A stretch of DNA of 64,000 bases from an uncultured Actinomycetota bacterium (GTDB lineage: Bacteria > Actinomycetota > Actinomycetes > JAHEKZ01), in NCBI GenBank assembly GCA_963743915.1, contig CAVURN010000001.1, forward strand, positions 736,001-800,000, read 5' to 3'. Each line of letters opens with the position of its first letter. Position 1 is the stretch's first letter. Under the pieces are notes generated by a model. That model was not told the DNA's origin. It searched no databases and was given only the letters and a program-made list of their open reading frames with translations. A program made the position numbers and the translations under genes. Shown here in pieces: positions 25,452 to 32,913 of the stretch.

Positions 25452-26480
25452 ATGACGCGCTACGGCCCCATGTTCGGCCCTGACATCACCTTCCTCGGCG
25501 TGCCCGCCTGTGACCTCGACGAGCCGGACACGTACGCGGACGCCGACGTGGTGATCGTGGGTGCGCCGTTCGACGGTGGCACCAGCCACCGCCCTGGCAC
25601 GCGGTTCGGTCCCATGGCCATGCGCTCCACCGACTACCTACCGCACGACGGCGTCCGCCCGCACATGGCGATGCGGGTCGAGGCCTTGACCGAGGACCTC
25701 CGCGTGGTCGACGCGGGTGACCTCGAGGTCTACTCGGGCGACGTCGTGCGCAGCTGTCAGATCATCGAGGACGCGGTGGCCACCATCGCTGAGTCCGGCA
25801 AGATCCCGCTCGTGCTCGGCGGCGACCACACCGTCACCTGGCCGGACGTCACCGGGGTCGCCCGCGCCGCCGGCTACGGCCGGGTGTCGGTGATCCACTT
25901 CGACGCCCATGCCGACACCGGCGACATCGAGTTCGGCTCGCTCTACGGACACGGCCAGCCCATGCGCAGGCTCATCGAGTCGGGTGCTGCGCGCGGCGAC
26001 CGCTTCCTGCAGCTGGGGCTGCGCGGCTACTGGCCCGGCCCGGACATCCTCGACTGGATGGCCGACCAGAACATGCGTTCGTTCCACATGAGCGAGATCG
26101 TCGCCAAAGGCCTCGACGCGGTGCTGGACGAGGCCTTCACCATCGCCACCGACGACTGCGACGGGATCTTCCTGTCGGTCGACATCGACGTCTGCGACCC
26201 CGGGCACGCCCCCGGTACCGGCACCCCGGAACCGGGGGGACTGACCGCCCGCCAGCTGCTCGACGCCGTCTCGCGCATCTGCTACGAGCTGCCCGTGCTC
26301 GGCGTCGACGTGGTGGAGGTCTCCCCGCCCTACGACCACGCCGAGATCACCGCCTTCCTGGGCAACCGGGTGGTGCTCGAGGCCCTCTCCGGCATCGCAC
26401 GACGCCGCAAGGACGGCGGCCAGGTGCGCTGGGACCGGGCCACCCCGCTGCTCGACGGGCGTGGCTCCGGGTCCGTCTGA
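25452..26480 (+). CDS. speB: Agmatinase (ureohydrolase)
   Basis: GGDHT, HFDAHAD, SVDIDVCDP, GTGTPEPGG, VEVSPPYD. Confidence 0.9.
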   Translation: MTRYGPMFGPDITFLGVPACDLDEPDTYADADVVIVGAPFDGGTSHRPGTRFGPMAMRSTDYLPHDGVRPHMAMRVEALTEDLRVVDAGDLEVYSGDVVRSCQIIEDAVATIAESGKIPLVLGGDHTVTWPDVTGVARAAGYGRVSVIHFDAHADTGDIEFGSLYGHGQPMRRLIESGAARGDRFLQLGLRGYWPGPDILDWMADQNMRSFHMSEIVAKGLDAVLDEAFTIATDDCDGIFLSVDIDVCDPGHAPGTGTPEPGGLTARQLLDAVSRICYELPVLGVDVVEVSPPYDHAEITAFLGNRVVLEALSGIARRRKDGGQVRWDRATPLLDGRGSGSV

Positions 26481-26643
26481 GACCCTCTCTGACCTGGGCA
26501 ATATCACTCTCCGTAACATCGCCTGACACTGTGTGTTCACCCGTATGGCGGTCTAACGATGTCGCTCTCCGGCACGAAGTAATCACTGTGGGGGTGACGT
26601 TGTGCACTTCCCGCTCGTCGCGACTGAAATGGGAAGGGGAGCG

Positions 26644-26751
26644 ATGAAGAACATCAAGTCAGAGATGGTGGTCCGAGGCAGCGCTGCTGCGGTGGGCCTC
26701 ATGGTGCTCGTGTCCGTTGTCGGGGCCGGCACCAAGTGGATGAACAACTAA
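26644..26751 (+). CDS. 35-aa hydrophobic peptide with C-terminal SVVGAGTKW motif (putative signal precursor 1)
   Basis: AAGGGGAG SD, ATG...TAA; MKNIKSEMVVRGSAAAVGLMVLVSVVGAGTKWMNN; paralogous to the next ORF. Confidence 0.8.
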   Translation: MKNIKSEMVVRGSAAAVGLMVLVSVVGAGTKWMNN

Positions 26752-26764
26752 AGGAGGCGATCAC

Positions 26765-26871
26765 ATGATGGACGAGCTCAAGGCTCGCGTGATCGTCTCC
26801 GTGCTGGGCAGCGCCGCCACGGTGGTGACCCTGGCATCTGTGGTCGGAGCCGGAAAGAAGTGGGCCGCTAA
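26765..26871 (+). CDS. ~35-aa hydrophobic peptide with SVVGAGKKW motif (putative signal precursor 2)
   Basis: AGGAGG SD; MMDELKARVIVSVLGSAATVVTLASVVGAGKKW; TAA at 26869-26871 is one base out of frame (restoring one G gives ...KKWGR*); as assembled it reads on to 27070. Confidence 0.7.
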
Positions 26872-26878
26872 CGACACC

Positions 26879-26917
26879 AGAAGGGGGAGCCGTCGATCGT
26901 TCGGCGGCTCCCCTTCT
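26879..26917 (+). terminator. Strong hairpin between the peptide genes and the sensor gene
   Basis: agaagggggagccgtcga-tcgt-tcggcggctccccttct. Confidence 0.6.
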
Positions 26918-28986
26918 TCGTCGTCCCGAGTGGGCGCTTTCGGCCTACATCTGGGCCGTCATCGTCGACGGGGCTGCTGCTCCTGGTCGTGTCACTCTTC
27001 CTGGCACCGCTGTCCGAGGCCTTCGGGGTCGACGCATGGGGCGGATACCCCTCCCAGGGACTCGTGCTGACCCTGCTCGTGGGCACGGTGATCATCGGGG
27101 AGCTGCGCCCCGTCCCGGTGCCGCGCGGCGGCGACACCGCCGACATGATCACCATCTCCACCACGTTCACCCTCACGCTGGCCATCGTGGGTCCGGTGAG
27201 CGTCGCCCTGCTCGCCCAGGCGGTCGCTGTGCTCATCGACGACGCGATCTCCCGTCGGTCCCCGGTCAAGATCGCCTTCAACGTCGCGCAGTACACGATC
27301 ACGGTGATGGCCGCCCATACCGCGTACTCCCTCGTCGTCGGCGAGCCGGTCTTCGGGCCCTACAACTACTTCGACCACAACGCGCTGGAGCTCGCAGGTG
27401 CCTGGTCGCCGCCTTCGTCTTCCTGCTGGTGAACCAGGCACTGGTCTCCACCGTGGTCTCGCTCGCCTCCGAGCAGCGCGTCCGTACCGTCTTCGTGCAG
27501 GACCTGCGCTTCCAGGCGATGACCGCCGGCGTCCTCTCGATCCTCGCCCCCGTGGCAGCGCTCGTGGTGCAGGCGCAGCCGCTGATGCTCCCGATGCTGA
27601 TCGCGCCGGTCGCTGCGGTCTACAACAGCGCGCAGGCTCGCCGTCGCGATGGGTCGTCAGGCGAGCCACGACGCGCTGACCGGCCTGGCCAACCGCGAGC
27701 TGTTCCGCGAGCGGGCGGTCAAGGCACTCGAGGACTCGCAGCGGACCGACCAGCCCCTGGCGATCATGATGATCGACCTCGACCACTTCAAGGAGATCAA
27801 CGACACCCTCGGCCACCAGGTGGGCGACGAGCTGATCTGCGAGGTCGCTCACCGGCTGGAGGAGGCACGGCCAGCGGGTGCCACGGTGGCCCGCCTCGGT
27901 GGCGACGAGTTCGCGGTGCTCCTGCCGGACATCCCCGACCTCTCGGTCGCTGAGGACGTGGCCACGTACCTGCTGTCGGTCCTCGGCAAGTCGTTCTCGG
28001 TGGGCGGTGTCCGGCTGGTGGTGCAGGCGAGCCTCGGCATCGCCCTTGCTCCTGACCATGGCGACGACGTCCACACGCTCATGCGCCGCTCCGACATCGC
28101 GCTCTACGAGGCGAAACGCGAGCGCGCACGCTTCTGTGCCTACACCTCCGAGGACGAGGACACCCACACCCCGCAACGTCTCACGATCCTCACCGACCTG
28201 CGGTCGGCGGTGGAGGAGGACGAGCTCTTCCTCGTCTACCAGCCGAAGATCGATGTCGCGAGCGGCGAGGTCGCCGGTGTCGAGGCGCTGGTGCGCTGGA
28301 ACCACCCCACCCGCGGCATCCAGTACCCCGACACGTTCATCCCGCTGGCCGAGAACACCGGTCTCATCACACCGATCACGTGGTTCGTGGTGGAGCGCGC
28401 CCTCCGTCAGGTGCGGACATGGCAGGAGAACGGGATCGACCTGTCGGTCGCGGTCAACCTCTCGGTGCGCCACCTCACCGACATGAGTCTGCCGGACCGG
28501 ATCGCGGTCGCCCTCGAGCGCTGGGGGGTGGCACCGTCCAAGCTGGTGGTCGAGGTCACCGAGAACAGCATCATGACGGACCCGAAGCGTGCGACGGTCG
28601 TGCTGCAGCAGCTGCGCAGGATCGGCGTCGAGATCGCGATCGACGACTACGGCACCGGCCATGCGTCCCTGAACTACCTCAAGCGCTTCGACATCGACGA
28701 GCTCAAGGTGGACAAGTCGTTCATCATGAACCTGGACCCCGACTCGAGCGACGCGATCATCGTCGCCTCCACCATCGAGCTCGGCCACAACCTCGGGCTG
28801 CGGATCGTCGCCGAAGGGGTCGAGGACGCCGCGACGCTCGAGTGGCTCGGCGGCCTCGGGTGCGACATCGCGCAGGGCTTCCACATCGGGCGACCGATGA
28901 CTCCGGAGGCCATCGTCGAGGTCGTGCGTGAGCGCGGCGGGGACCACCGGTCCGCTGGTCCGCTGCGTCTGGTCGGGAGCAGCTGA
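26892..28986 (+). CDS. Multi-TM sensor domain plus GGDEF-EAL (diguanylate cyclase/phosphodiesterase); frameshifts near 26967, 27405 and 27636
   Basis: Hydrophobic N-terminal segments across three frames (GELRPVPV, ITISTTFTL, KIAFNVAQ, FLLVNQALV); HDALTGLANR, RLGGDEF, VEALVRW, DDYGTG, AEGVE, QGF; no clear start codon seen. Confidence 0.85.
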
Positions 28987-29634
28987 TGCTCGTCCTCGTC
29001 CTGTGCGTCTTGTCGCTCGCGTCGCCCGTGCTGTTCGGCGGGCAGATGTCGCGGCTCGCCTTCGTCCGGTTCCGTGGCTGGTGGATCCTGGTCGCGGCGC
29101 TGCTCGCGCAGATCGTCATCATCGAGGTGGTTCCCGACGCGAACCGCACGCTGCTGGAGAGCGTGCACATGGCGACGTACGTCGCGGCGGGCGCCTTCGT
29201 CGCCATGAACTGGCGGGTGCCGGGACTCCTGGTCATCGCGCTGGGGGGCGCCTCGAACGGCATCACGATCGCCCTCAACGGCGGGCAGCTGCCGGCGTCG
29301 CGACCCGCTCTGGAGATGGCGGGCATCGAGGTGGCCAACGGTGACTTCATCAACTCCGGTGTGCTGAAGGACCCCGTGCTGCCGCTTGCTGGGTGACTAC
29401 TTCGTGTGGCCTGAACCCTTTCCGTTCGCCAACGTGTTCAGCGTCGGGGATGTGCTGATCGTCCTCGGTACGCTCTACGGCGCTCACAAGATCACCGGGT
29501 CGCGTCTGGTCAAGCGCCCGTGGCGGCTGCCCGACGACGTCGAGGCGATGCTGCGGGGAGGCCGCGGGGACGCCGAGGTGCCGGCTGGGGCGGCAGAGGG
29601 GCAGTCCGGTCGTCTGCGGATGCGGTGCCGGTAG
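28986..29634 (+). CDS. DUF5317-like membrane protein (frameshift near 29389)
   Basis: TGATG coupling; GG..SRL..VRFRGWW, LGGASNGITIALNGGQLP, LGDYF, NVFSVGDVLIVLG. Confidence 0.75.
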
Positions 29635-29809
29635 CCGCGGCTCCGGAGTCCCTCGCCGAGCGTCTCGCCCGACGTCGGGGCCCTAACCAGCGAAGAGCAC
29701 GACACAGGTTAGGATCGGTGGCGCCGCGAGCCCGATGCCCGGAGGATGCCACCCCGAAGGGCTCGGGTCCATGGACACCGCGGCGTCCGCCGACGGAAGG
29801 ACTTCTCTC

Positions 29810-31032
29810 ATGCGCATCCTGCTGGTCGGAGCAGGGGGTGTCGGCTCGGCGGTCGTGCCGATCGCTGCTCGCCGTGACTTCTTCGAGACCGTGGTGGTGG
29901 CCGACTACGACCGTGACCGCGCCGAACGTGCCGTCGCGCAGGTGGACGACCCGCGCTTCGTCGCTGCCGAGGTGGACGCGTCGAACGCCGAGGCAGTGGT
30001 CGGTCTGGTCCGTGAACATGCGATCACCCACGTCCTCAACGCCGTGGATCCACGGTTCGTGCTCCCCATCTTCAACGGGGCGTTGGCGGCTGGTGCTGAC
30101 TACCTGGACATGGCGATGTCGCTGTCGTTCCCCCATCAGGACGAGCCGTACGCCAAGACCGGCGTCAAGCTCGGCGACGAGCAGTTCGCGGTGGCCGGTG
30201 AGTGGGAGAAGGCCGGTCGGCTGGCACTGGTGGGCGTAGGCGTCGAGCCCGGCCTCTCCGACGTGTTCGCCCGCTACGCAGCCGACGAGCTCTTCAGCGA
30301 GATCGACGAGGCCGGTGTCAGGGACGGATCGAATCTCGAGGTCGACGGGTACACGTTCGCTCCCTCGTTCTCGATCTGGACCACCATCGAGGAGTGCCTG
30401 AACCCGCCGGTGATCTGGGAGAAGGACAGAGGGCTGGTTCACGACGCCTCCCTTCTCCGAGCCGGAGGTGTTCGACTTCCCGGAGGGCATCGGACCGGTC
30501 GAGTGCGTGAACGTCGAGCACGAGGAGGTCCTGCTCATCCCGCGGTGGGTCGACTGCCGGCGCGCGACCTTCAAGTACGGCCTGGGTGAGGAGTTCATCG
30601 ACGTCCTGAAGGTGATCCACAAGCTCGGCATGGACCGGACGCAGAAGGTCGCGGTGGGGGACGTCGGAGGTCAGCCCCCGCGACGTCATCGCCGCGCTGC
30701 TTCCCGACCCCGCCACGCTCGGCGACCGCATGACGGGCAAGACGTGCGCCGGCACGTGGGTGACCGGTACCGGCAAGGACGGCAAGCCCACGTCAGGTGT
30801 ACCTGTACCACGTGGTCGACAACGAGTGGACGATGCGCGAGTACGGCTCGCAGGCCGTCGTGTGGCAGACGGCGATCAACCCCGTCGTCGCCCTCGAGCT
30901 GCTGGCCGACGGGTCATGGTCGGGAACCGGCGTCCTGGGACCGGAGGCCTTTCCGCCGAAGCCTTTCCTGGACAAGCTCGTCGCCTACGGGTCACCGTGG
31001 GGCATGCGCGAGGAGACGCCACGCCAGCATGA
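29810..31032 (+). CDS. Saccharopine dehydrogenase/carboxyspermidine dehydrogenase-family enzyme (several frameshifts)
   Basis: MRILLVGAGGVG, YLDMA, GVEPGLSDVFA, FSIWTTIEECLNP, VEHEEV, QAVVWQTA, GVLGPEAF; 3' end approximate. Confidence 0.8.
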
Positions 31033-31590: not shown

Positions 31591-32913
31591 TCAACGACTG
31601 AGCGTTGCCATGACGGGACCGAGGACCGTGGCGATGATGCGCGCGTGACGCAGCTGCAGGCGGGACCACGGCGCCCGGTCTCGCCGGGAGCACTCGAGCA
31701 GCCCGACGACGCTGCCGGCAGCGAGGACCGGGATGCCGATCATCGTGGCCATGCCCTCGGTCGTCATCCACGCCACCTCCGCCGGATCGGCATCGGGGTC
31801 GTCACGGTCGACGGTCATGATCTCGAGGGTCTCGAGGCACCGCGCCGTCTGCGGATAGTCCGCCAAGGGGTACCGCATCCCGTCGGGCATCCACACCCGC
31901 CGGGACATTCCCTGCGCGTACTGGCGGGTCGGGTCGACCGAGGAGATCTCGGCCAGGTCGCACTGCAGGTGGGCGCTGATGGCATCGGCCATCCGGGCAA
32001 GGCTGTCGAGGTCGTTGCAGTGCACGAGGTCGGCGAGCAGGCGTTCGAGTGCGCTCGTGTCCTGCCCCGGGGCGCGTGAGCCCAGCGCCAACGTGCGGCG
32101 GTAGGAGCTCTGGCAGGTGAGCACAGCGGACTCGCTCGCGGCGGCGAACTCCGGGGTGGGCATCCCGATCACCCAGCCCTGTGCCTCTGCGACGTCGAGG
32201 TCGGCGAGCACGTAGAGGCCGTCGAGGTTCTCCACGCCCTCGGCGCACACCTCCGCCCCGACGCGGGCGGCATACCGCACCACAGCCTCGACGAGGGCTG
32301 CCTTGGCGGCCTGTGACTCGATGCCGGTGACGAGCGAACGGTCGAGCTTGAGAAGGTCGGGGGACAGGGTCATGACCCGCTGAAGTCCGGCGTAGCCCTC
32401 TCCGACGTCGTCCACGGCGATGCGGGCACCGCGGTCCCGCAGGGCACGGAGGACCACCTGGAATCCGTCGCCGTCCTCGACGACCTCCTTCTCGGTGATC
32501 TCGAACTGCACACCGGTCAGGTCGAACGGAAGGACGTCGTGGAACTCCGGGGCGGACAGCACCGAGGGACTGACGTTGACCGAGAGGACCGATCCGTCGG
32601 GTCGGCTCTCGCCGACTCGCATCGCCAGGTCGACCGCCCGGGCCTCGAACATCGGCCCGAGACCGCACCGGTGCGCCATCGCGAACCAGGTGTCGGGGGA
32701 GTGCGAAGGCAGATCGGCCCCGAAGCGGGACAGTGCCTCGTAGCCGACGACCCGCCCGGACGAGAGGCCCAGGATCGGCTGGACGACGATCGACGGAGCC
32801 CCGCTGTGCAGCGCCCGGGTGACGAGGGCGCGGCACTCATCCACATCGGGCAGGGGATCCGGCGCAGCCGTGGACGCCGGCTCGGCCGCGATCGCTGCCC
32901 CGGTGCTGGTCAT
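31591..32913 (-). CDS. EAL-domain c-di-GMP phosphodiesterase with C-terminal GAF domain
   Basis: GYEALSRF, NVSP, EITE, DDVGEGY, KLD, AEGVE, QGW; GAF YPLADYPQT...GIPVLAAGSVVGLLEC. Confidence 0.85.
   Translation of the reverse strand: MTSTGAAIAAEPASTAAPDPLPDVDECRALVTRALHSGAPSIVVQPILGLSSGRVVGYEALSRFGADLPSHSPDTWFAMAHRCGLGPMFEARAVDLAMRVGESRPDGSVLSVNVSPSVLSAPEFHDVLPFDLTGVQFEITEKEVVEDGDGFQVVLRALRDRGARIAVDDVGEGYAGLQRVMTLSPDLLKLDRSLVTGIESQAAKAALVEAVVRYAARVGAEVCAEGVENLDGLYVLADLDVAEAQGWVIGMPTPEFAAASESAVLTCQSSYRRTLALGSRAPGQDTSALERLLADLVHCNDLDSLARMADAISAHLQCDLAEISSVDPTRQYAQGMSRRVWMPDGMRYPLADYPQTARCLETLEIMTVDRDDPDADPAEVAWMTTEGMATMIGIPVLAAGSVVGLLECSRRDRAPWSRLQLRHARIIATVLGPVMATLSR

Follow-up and report, generated by a model that had tools for sequence, protein, structure and literature searches.

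The locus analysed here raises the question of what a small membrane protein of the Pfam family DUF5317 (PF17248) does at the end of an operon that also encodes two micropeptides and an enzyme of cyclic di-GMP (c-di-GMP) turnover. It lies in a 64,000-nucleotide stretch of an uncultured Actinomycetota genome (GenBank assembly GCA_963743915.1, contig CAVURN010000001.1, positions 736,001 to 800,000), which is referred to below as the window. A preliminary description of the DUF5317 gene had taken its product for a peptidase with the fold of the signal peptidase II LspA, repurposed to cut the neighbouring peptides. The genetic link between DUF5317 and the peptides is strongly supported by our analysis, and none of the tests that were run identifies DUF5317 as a homologue of LspA. 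From the gene arrangement we infer an undescribed c-di-GMP system made up of micropeptide, enzyme and DUF5317. The reading that we favour, and that we regard as about evenly balanced between right and wrong, is that DUF5317 serves in this module as the membrane partner of the peptides, whose outward GAGxKW end it would engage.

Linkage of DUF5317 to a c-di-GMP enzyme and to GAGxKW micropeptides

The gene neighbourhood was compared across 80 related loci, the best 80 of 553 confirmed relatives in species-representative genomes. A GGDEF-EAL homologue is present anywhere in 77 of these loci. Where it shares the strand of DUF5317, its gene ends less than 300 nucleotides upstream in 72 of the 80 and at 348 nucleotides in one more, while in the other seven it is not upstream on the DUF5317 strand, being located on the other strand in four and missing from three. 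In the window, the stop codon TGA of the enzyme gene (28984-28986) overlaps the ATG of DUF5317 by one base (TGATG). The conserved order of the operon is one or two micropeptide genes followed by the gene for a MASE9-like GGDEF-EAL enzyme, with DUF5317 last. MASE9 is described, in the passages of Galperin and Chou (bioRxiv 10.1101/2021.11.05.467447) that bear on it, as a membrane-located sensor domain found in both HD-GYP and GGDEF-EAL proteins, its ligand being proposed to bind within the membrane; neither DUF5317 nor micropeptide partners are mentioned in these passages. An intact enzyme orthologue of 711 amino acids from one related locus (L006) gives a sub-threshold match to MASE9 (PF20972) over profile positions 55-175 of 203 (E 0.00091), and no MASE9 match was obtained with the broken pieces of the GGDEF-EAL gene in the window.

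The micropeptides are single-pass proteins of 30-36 residues, encoded once or twice per operon and ending in GAGxKW plus 0-4 residues. A regular-expression search for similar open reading frames (ORFs) in the expected upstream region returned them in 55 of the 80 loci, with a few false positives. Both strands of the 80 loci together contain 15,852 ORFs that run from stop to stop and encode 20 or more amino acids; all of these were searched with a profile seeded with 69 locus-derived ORFs, which matched 81 of them at E ≤ 0.01. These matches are distributed over 61 of the 80 loci, which bears out the linkage to adjacent GAG-containing peptide genes noticed in the preliminary description. Most of them (76/81) are on the same strand, 2000-2700 nucleotides upstream of DUF5317 and just ahead of the enzyme gene; the remaining matches comprise two directly upstream of DUF5317, two divergent beside it and one elsewhere (L033). 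The genome to which the window belongs contains only the two copies of the window, as judged by a search with the same profile. Since the peptide gene adjoins DUF5317 without an intervening GGDEF-EAL gene in four loci, upstream on the same strand in L031 (5484-5636) and L044 (5708-5851) and divergently on the minus strand in L056 (5714-5887) and L060 (5698-5847), the arrangement suggests that peptide and DUF5317 together form the core of the module.

Conservation of the peptides is strongest at their C-terminal end. Across 41 aligned peptides, the A, G, K and W of GAGxKW do not vary, and GAG is present in 77 of the 81 ORFs. The next position is taken by T, K, V, R, F, S, Y, W, L, M, Q or H in all 81 and by Cys in none. 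The tail after the W/F consists of 0, 1, 2, 3 and 4 residues in 5, 46, 23, 6 and 1 of the peptides, respectively. The membrane segment is conserved as well, for example in a V-R near position 15 in at least 70% of them.

Conserved residues of DUF5317 and readings of its function

The DUF5317 gene of the window is split into two pieces (Table 1), both of which exceed the 25-bit gathering score of PF17248, in agreement with the family label of the preliminary description. Residues 28-115 of piece 1 match profile positions 3-93 and residues 1-30 of piece 2 match positions 118-147. The strings and coordinates quoted in that description were likewise found in the window: VIALGGASNGITIALNGG is present in the 136-residue ORF 28986..29396, the 82-residue ORF 29386..29634 starts with (M)LGDYFVWPEPFPFANVFSVGDVLIVLG in the next frame relative to piece 1, and the two Asp codons, GAC at 29395-29397 and GAT at 29449-29451, are 18 residues apart. 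Translation of the window with a four-letter step at the split gives a DUF5317 protein of 216 residues. A whole-genome search with PF17248 did not find a second DUF5317 copy, and NCBIfam returned no meaningful E-value match for DUF5317 or for either micropeptide. The names DUF5317 and PF17248 were not found in the literature searched.

In all, 132 DUF5317 homologues were found, and there are 4596 representatives at 50% identity with E ≤ 0.001. DUF5317 is an accessory gene, present in 59 of 151 sampled Actinomycetota genomes (53 of 145 without six that are flagged as unpublished). In one homologue of 363 amino acids (P0291), the DUF5317 part is followed by a C-terminal PemK/MazF-like match of 23.3 bits against a cut-off of 23.1, which may be a gene-call fusion.

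Conserved residues were identified in an alignment of 184 DUF5317 sequences, consisting of 147 of the 150 listed nearest representatives and 37 further sequences. D137, D155, N75, G87, N91, N98, P103, G136, P142 and G154 are invariant in all 184, and Q42, H61, Y65, N123, S124 and S152 are retained in 180-183 of them (S152 in 183). The distance between D137 and D155 is 18 in 180 sequences. The mean number of Lys and Arg in loops 1, 2 and 3 is 3.36, 0.12 and 1.45, respectively, and that of the tail is 3.42, and loop 4 is net acidic (4.31 Asp and Glu versus 2.32 Lys and Arg). The positive-inside rule predicts from these charges a topology of five spans with the N-terminus outside and the basic tail inside. 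Because the charges obey the rule for this layout, both invariant Asp residues are placed outside, in a predicted net-acidic loop of about 55 residues.

An AlphaFold2 (AF2) model was obtained for P0001, an orthologue of 235 amino acids that is 93% identical to DUF5317 of the window (predicted local distance difference test, pLDDT, 87.2; predicted template modelling score, pTM, 0.76; pLDDT 86.1 for a separate model of the C-terminal half). It contains five long helices (residues 2-17, 32-48, 54-74, 81-97 and 153-170) and short strands at residues 102-104, 139-141 and 149-151, the latter two at 137-141 and 149-152 in the half model. By this model, piece 1 of the window spans helices 1-4 and most of the outward loop. 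The invariant Gly-Asp pairs are located at either end of a predicted beta-hairpin: D137 is at or just before the first hairpin strand, and D155, straight after the second strand, is the third residue of helix 5, which the second Gly-Asp opens. Judging from the hairpin register, D137 and D155 should be close together. The conservation that the preliminary description expected of the two Asp residues is thus confirmed, and their predicted placement at the hairpin ends of an outward loop agrees with it. A search of the ESM Atlas gave no usable match among named clusters outside PF17248 and, when all clusters were allowed, DUF5317 clusters only.

In the reading that we favour, the outward-facing GAGxKW end of the micropeptides would be engaged by DUF5317 through a polar pocket composed of the two Asp and of Asn, Ser, His, Tyr and Gln residues that are likewise invariant, and this contact would set the state of the membrane sensor that governs c-di-GMP synthesis and breakdown. 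The invariant Lys of the peptides may simply pair with the Asp residues of DUF5317, and if no cut is made the Asp pair may do no more than bind the invariant Lys-Trp. A complex predicted for DUF5317 residues 1-180 with peptide 1 scored 0.32 (0.32, 0.36 and 0.31 in separate runs), which is graded as 'weak support', against 0.00 for the best of three controls; contacts are reproduced between the runs to at least 89%, with a partner pLDDT of at least 60. In the calibration of this score, its mark is reached by 58 of 80 solved complexes and by 2 of 110 mismatched pairs, and cases that reach it with a score of 0.60 or less make up just 7 of the solved complexes and both of the passing mismatches; custom alignments were used for the present prediction, so that the calibration applies to it only approximately. 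That the membrane segment of the peptides is conserved, and that any cleavage product would be tiny, speaks for a stable subunit.

Several points weigh against this reading. The complex score falls in the weak band, where a prediction is more often wrong than right if no prior likelihood is brought in, and the peptide could bind the MASE9-like domain instead of DUF5317. The MASE9 match of the enzyme is itself below the Pfam cut-off (19.6 versus 24.3 bits). The abundance of invariant polar residues would suit an enzyme or a transporter better than a plain binding partner. As for the linkage, 11 of the 72 assessable loci have no peptide match, and eight of the 80 have less than 2400 nucleotides of upstream sequence and are not assessable for peptides. 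The profile was seeded from regular-expression ORFs of the same upstream region, so that matches there are partly by construction; what is informative is that matches are lacking elsewhere and that some fall outside the seed region. Lastly, the sample is narrow, since 79 of the 80 loci bear actinobacterial titles (Actinomycetota or taxa within it) and one is titled 'uncultured bacterium'.

The many invariant polar residues, together with fusions to exporters, argue for an enzyme. All 21 homologues longer than 412 amino acids that were found with residues 1-180 consist of an N-terminal DUF5317 fused to a transporter of the major facilitator superfamily (MFS), and 19 of them also match MFS_3; the fused transporter of P0389-P0408 and P0385 is a DHA3/EntS-like MFS. 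Among 12 proteins of at least 470 amino acids that were scanned, seven have a clear and one a weak MFS domain, and four have no second Pfam domain. The GD..GD motif is retained in 20 of the 21 fusions by regular expression, the failing one being P0406.

It is conceivable, if on the whole somewhat unlikely, that DUF5317 constitutes a novel aspartic peptidase of the membrane that resembles LspA by convergence and not by descent, and that would cut the signal-peptide-like micropeptides after GAG on the outer membrane side and so free xKW(x) oligopeptides. Among the alternatives to plain engagement of the peptides, such hydrolysis is the most specific. Two invariant Gly-Asp at a constant spacing, predicted to face outward at the base of a hairpin beside the start of a helix, more than ten invariant polar residues, and retention of the motif in efflux-type transporter fusions would all suit such an activity, and the peptides offer small residues (G-A-G) at positions -3 to -1 ahead of the invariant KW. 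The product, however, would comprise just 3-7 residues, given the short tail after the Trp, and the conserved membrane segment of the peptides is less in keeping with a throw-away leader than with a stable subunit. When 37 DUF5317 members were scanned against Pfam at E ≤ 10, Peptidase_A8 was the second most frequent family and the only one besides DUF5317 to match more than two members (4 of 37, best E 0.036); a profile search of the PDB and the structure look-ups gave no sequence or fold match to any peptidase. GxGD-type aspartic peptidases, such as those of the presenilin and prepilin peptidase type, carry their second Asp in a G-x-G-D motif. The second Asp motif of DUF5317 is S-x-G-D, not G-x-G-D, and GxGD-type families are absent among the 10 Pfam families matched in that scan. 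Cleavage is best regarded as a candidate activity of the protein.

An elaboration of the peptidase reading would connect cleavage to the second messenger: DUF5317 would clip the peptides after GAG, the MASE9-like sensor would read the released xKW(x) or the remaining stub and thereby switch c-di-GMP synthesis and breakdown, and DUF5317 would be fused to an MFS exporter in other lineages. Such a self-contained peptide-to-second-messenger circuit appears distinctly unlikely to us.

We consider it equally doubtful that the target of DUF5317 is not the peptide, the protein being, for instance, an enzyme that handles small molecules or lipids, or an accessory to a transporter, with the micropeptides regulating only the GGDEF-EAL enzyme. 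The MFS transporter is the only recurrent fusion partner, an MFS gene is located directly downstream of DUF5317 in two loci without a peptide match (L080, 4289-5413; L043, 6637-7683), and Asn, Asp and Ser are found at many invariant positions within helices or close to them, all of which would agree with this role; yet the peptide gene is still beside DUF5317 in the four loci named above, where the enzyme gene is missing or inverted, and the predicted complex, for all its weak support, scores above its controls.

Comparison of DUF5317 with LspA

LspA has four helices (H1-H4), a beta-cradle and a catalytic dyad (D118/D136 in S. aureus) near the outer surface, and its substrates carry a lipobox with Cys at +1 and are cut between Gly and Cys; its 14 highly conserved residues are, in S. 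aureus, D21, K25, N52, G54, G102, N106, D109, R110, V116, D118, F132, N133, A135 and D136 (in the relevant passages of PMC6952399). The likeness of DUF5317 to LspA (MEROPS A8, PF01252; PDB 5DIR/6FMS, 6RYO/6RYP and 9EMZ) goes beyond chance only in part. DUF5317 too is a small polytopic membrane protein with two conserved Asp residues placed on the outer side, the first on or adjoining a beta-strand and the second in a hydrophobic-F-x-x-(A/G)-D sequence that opens the last helix, and its candidate substrates carry small residues before the putative site. The spacing of the two Asp, cited in the preliminary description as LspA-like, is indeed the 18 residues of D118/D136 in S. aureus, but among 30 LspA domains collected from across Actinomycetota, which served as our comparison set, it is 14 in 28 and 19 in two.

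Neither DUF5317 piece of the window matches Peptidase_A8 (PF01252, 25-bit gathering score) at E ≤ 1. A DUF5317 profile built from 37 sequences gave no match to PDB sequences at E ≤ 10, while an LspA profile used as a control recovered all three distinct LspA sequences in the same set (5DIR, 9EMZ and 6RYO). Profile-profile comparison with hhalign, using small alignments, aligned 34 columns around the second Asp (probability 0.39%, E 0.15), the first Asp of DUF5317 falling three residues ahead of that of LspA. With 184 DUF5317 sequences and the 30 LspA domains, 27 columns were aligned in which VFSvGD and helix 5 of DUF5317 pair with VFNvAD and helix 4 of LspA (P 0.0065, probability 5.9%). The score of this alignment, 23.5, exceeds the maximum of 60 column shuffles (20.7), and the reversed LspA alignment reaches 21.8. 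Because this reversed control scores nearly as high, the profile signal cannot be told from a match between two hydrophobic helices. An LspA hidden Markov model (HMM) places its positions of about 117-143 on DUF5317 residues of about 145-175 in 161 of the 184 sequences, with a median of 3.35 and a maximum of 11.6 bits as compared to -1.2 and 4.4 bits for reversed sequences.

The LspA-like pattern described earlier is therefore to be retained only in its last block. The VF-(S/N)-x-(G/A)-D sequence and the helix following it align, whereas the LGGALGN and VVDF blocks never do, and in the profile alignments only the second Asp pairs with the Asp of the LspA FNxAD sequence, the first being off register or outside the alignment. 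Of the 14 conserved LspA residues, counterparts exist in the last block alone (F-F, N-S, A-G and D-D). The profile comparisons yielded no aligned DUF5317 counterpart for the D/K, N-x-G and D-R positions, and among the invariant residues of DUF5317 nothing corresponds to the Asp/Lys of H1, the Asn-x-Gly of the cradle or the Asp-Arg of H3. The likeness appears to be a reproducible local motif, strand-Asp ... (F)-x-x-(A/G)-Asp-helix, which is too short to show common descent.

Structure comparison points in the same direction. Foldseek searches of the PDB returned 29 rows at E ≤ 10 for the whole DUF5317 model (best E 0.95) and 13 rows for its C-terminal half (best E 3.4), neither of them with an LspA, and VIA-align of those 13 chains likewise gave none. 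Altogether, five look-ups with Foldseek and VIA-align, covering two models, had no LspA chain among their rows, an absence that does not prove the folds to be different. The five helices of DUF5317 versus the four of LspA, an insert of about 40 residues before the first Asp and a different set of invariant residues all point away from LspA. As far as the search tools can tell, then, the predicted structure is unlike that of LspA, and the LspA-fold peptidase of the preliminary description could not be upheld: to the structural differences are added the lack of a significant profile match and of a lipobox Cys in the partner peptides.

Canonical LspA is moreover present in its own right, encoded on another contig of the same genome (a 179-residue ORF, 123.3 bits) and in 59 of 61 sampled Actinomycetota genomes (56 of 58 without three that are flagged), so that the accessory DUF5317 coexists with it. 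That DUF5317 shares ancestry with LspA and, though far diverged from it, keeps its fold seems very improbable indeed, in that the aligned last block, the consistent HMM placement and the few weak Peptidase_A8 matches are set against the nearly equal reversed control, a first Asp and a GGAxGNxxDR block that never align, the extra helix and insert, and the differing distribution of the two genes.

Reading frames, neighbouring features and related systems

The features of the operon are listed in Table 1. At the split of the DUF5317 gene, the window has one surplus base (CCGCTTGCTGGG) relative to CCGC-TG.. in a DNA alignment with five orthologous loci, and orthologues up to the identity of P0001 are continuous through ..VLPLLGDYFVWPEP... 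Similar defects are seen in the genes around it. In peptide gene 2, the stop is lost in the window, and an extra T behind 26865, present in relatives' contigs from two runs (X5 and X8), restores ..KKWAR and a stop; orthologues of this peptide end in KKWAR, AN or AHH. The reading frame of the GGDEF-EAL gene is shifted near 26966 and near 27400 and again at 27632, where relatives' contigs from four of four sequencing runs lack one base; none of the runs compared contains more than 0.24 of the sampled words. Single-base indels between the window and relatives' contigs are located at 26865, 26966, 27632, 30280/30282, 30426-30430, 30555 and 30665, and at least four consecutive genes are frame-broken in window positions 26500-30700. 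The orthologous operon of L006 is unbroken, with products of 711, 259 and 424 amino acids. Because five orthologues lack the extra base and single-base indels occur elsewhere in the same ~4 kb, the split is probably an assembly error and the DUF5317 gene probably intact in the organism. None of the differences listed for the relatives' contigs is at 29385, and the error reading at that site rests on the orthologue comparisons. The indel pattern at 26500-30700 looks like that of a noisy long-read assembly rather than the decay of one operon. A programmed frameshift was rejected, as no orthologue departs from the frame and other single-base indels relative to relatives occur within these 4 kb. 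A second frame change occurs near 29590 in the DUF5317 tail, where the tail of P0002 agrees with the frame of the ORF starting at 29520, and for this reason the true stop of the gene is uncertain.

Table 1. Features of the DUF5317 operon in the window
Feature	Coordinates	Strand	Details
Micropeptide gene 1	26644..26751	+	35 codons, ends ..VVGAGTKWMNN; GGGAAGGGGAG ribosome-binding-like stretch upstream; profile E 1.3e-13
Micropeptide gene 2	26765..26872	+	..VVGAGKKWA..; AAGGAGG upstream; profile E 8.2e-11
Strong RNA hairpin after peptide gene 2	26871..26924	+	-40.7 kcal/mol, z -4.6, 0/200 shuffles fold as well
Membrane MASE9-like GGDEF-EAL c-di-GMP enzyme gene	26925..28986	+	GGDEF 158.5 bits, EAL 248.7 bits
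DUF5317 gene, piece 1	28986..29396	+	Residues 1-134 plus 2 out-of-frame codons; PF17248 49 bits
Site of the single extra base splitting the DUF5317 gene	29385..29387	+	CTTG here versus C-TG in orthologues
DUF5317 gene, piece 2	29386..29634	+	GD, beta-hairpin, SVGD, helix 5, basic tail; PF17248 28.1 bits

No U-run accompanies the hairpin that separates the second peptide gene from the enzyme gene. This hairpin may act as an attenuator or terminator, and it may set a high ratio of peptide to enzyme expression. A scan for consensus promoters and terminators found none of either. An Rfam search of positions 26300-29800 at E ≤ 1 detected no riboswitch; its sole match, a sucC RNA on the minus strand, was taken as chance, scoring 24.9 bits against a gathering score of 50.

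Downstream of DUF5317, a gene of the saccharopine dehydrogenase family (29810 to about 31080, plus strand) is frame-broken in the window, and its copy in L006 is intact (424 amino acids, Sacchrp_dh_NADP and Sacchrp_dh_C). Because a homologue is present in just 12 of the 80 related loci, this gene is probably not part of the module. Further on, a 440-residue ORF at 31591-32913 on the minus strand, containing ..GYEALSRF.., resembles by eye a second EAL-type phosphodiesterase with a C-terminal sensor-like part.

The module provides a first functional handle on DUF5317, a family of 4596 representatives at 50% identity. If its Asp pair is catalytic, DUF5317 would be a new family of membrane peptidases; if not, it would still be of use in cautioning against deducing the fold of LspA from a motif that resembles it. 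The upstream enzyme resembles the MASE9 c-di-GMP enzymes (the passages of Galperin and Chou, bioRxiv 10.1101/2021.11.05.467447) in having a multi-helix membrane N-terminal domain followed by GGDEF-EAL, an architecture given for MASE9 in that work, and differs from them in that its MASE9 match is sub-threshold. The conserved trio of GAGxKW micropeptides, MASE9-like GGDEF-EAL enzyme and DUF5317 across many Actinomycetota offers testable candidates for the input of MASE9.

Two further systems invite comparison. Small single-pass membrane proteins are known to modulate membrane sensors, as MgrB does with PhoQ. The present module is similar in that a one-helix peptide of about 30-35 residues is encoded together with a membrane sensor enzyme, and unlike it in having DUF5317 as a third conserved partner, an invariant C-terminal GAGxKW in the peptide and an output of c-di-GMP turnover rather than a histidine kinase. 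In C39 peptidase-ABC (ATP-binding cassette) transporters, a peptidase domain for leader peptides is fused to an exporter and cuts after a double glycine. Here, the transporter is an MFS and not an ABC protein, DUF5317 is membrane-embedded with Asp in place of a Cys/His site, and the motif of the peptide is C-terminal instead of following an N-terminal leader. The resemblance to C39 lies in the N-terminal fusion of DUF5317 to an efflux-type transporter in some lineages, and in the Gly-Ala-Gly of the peptides.

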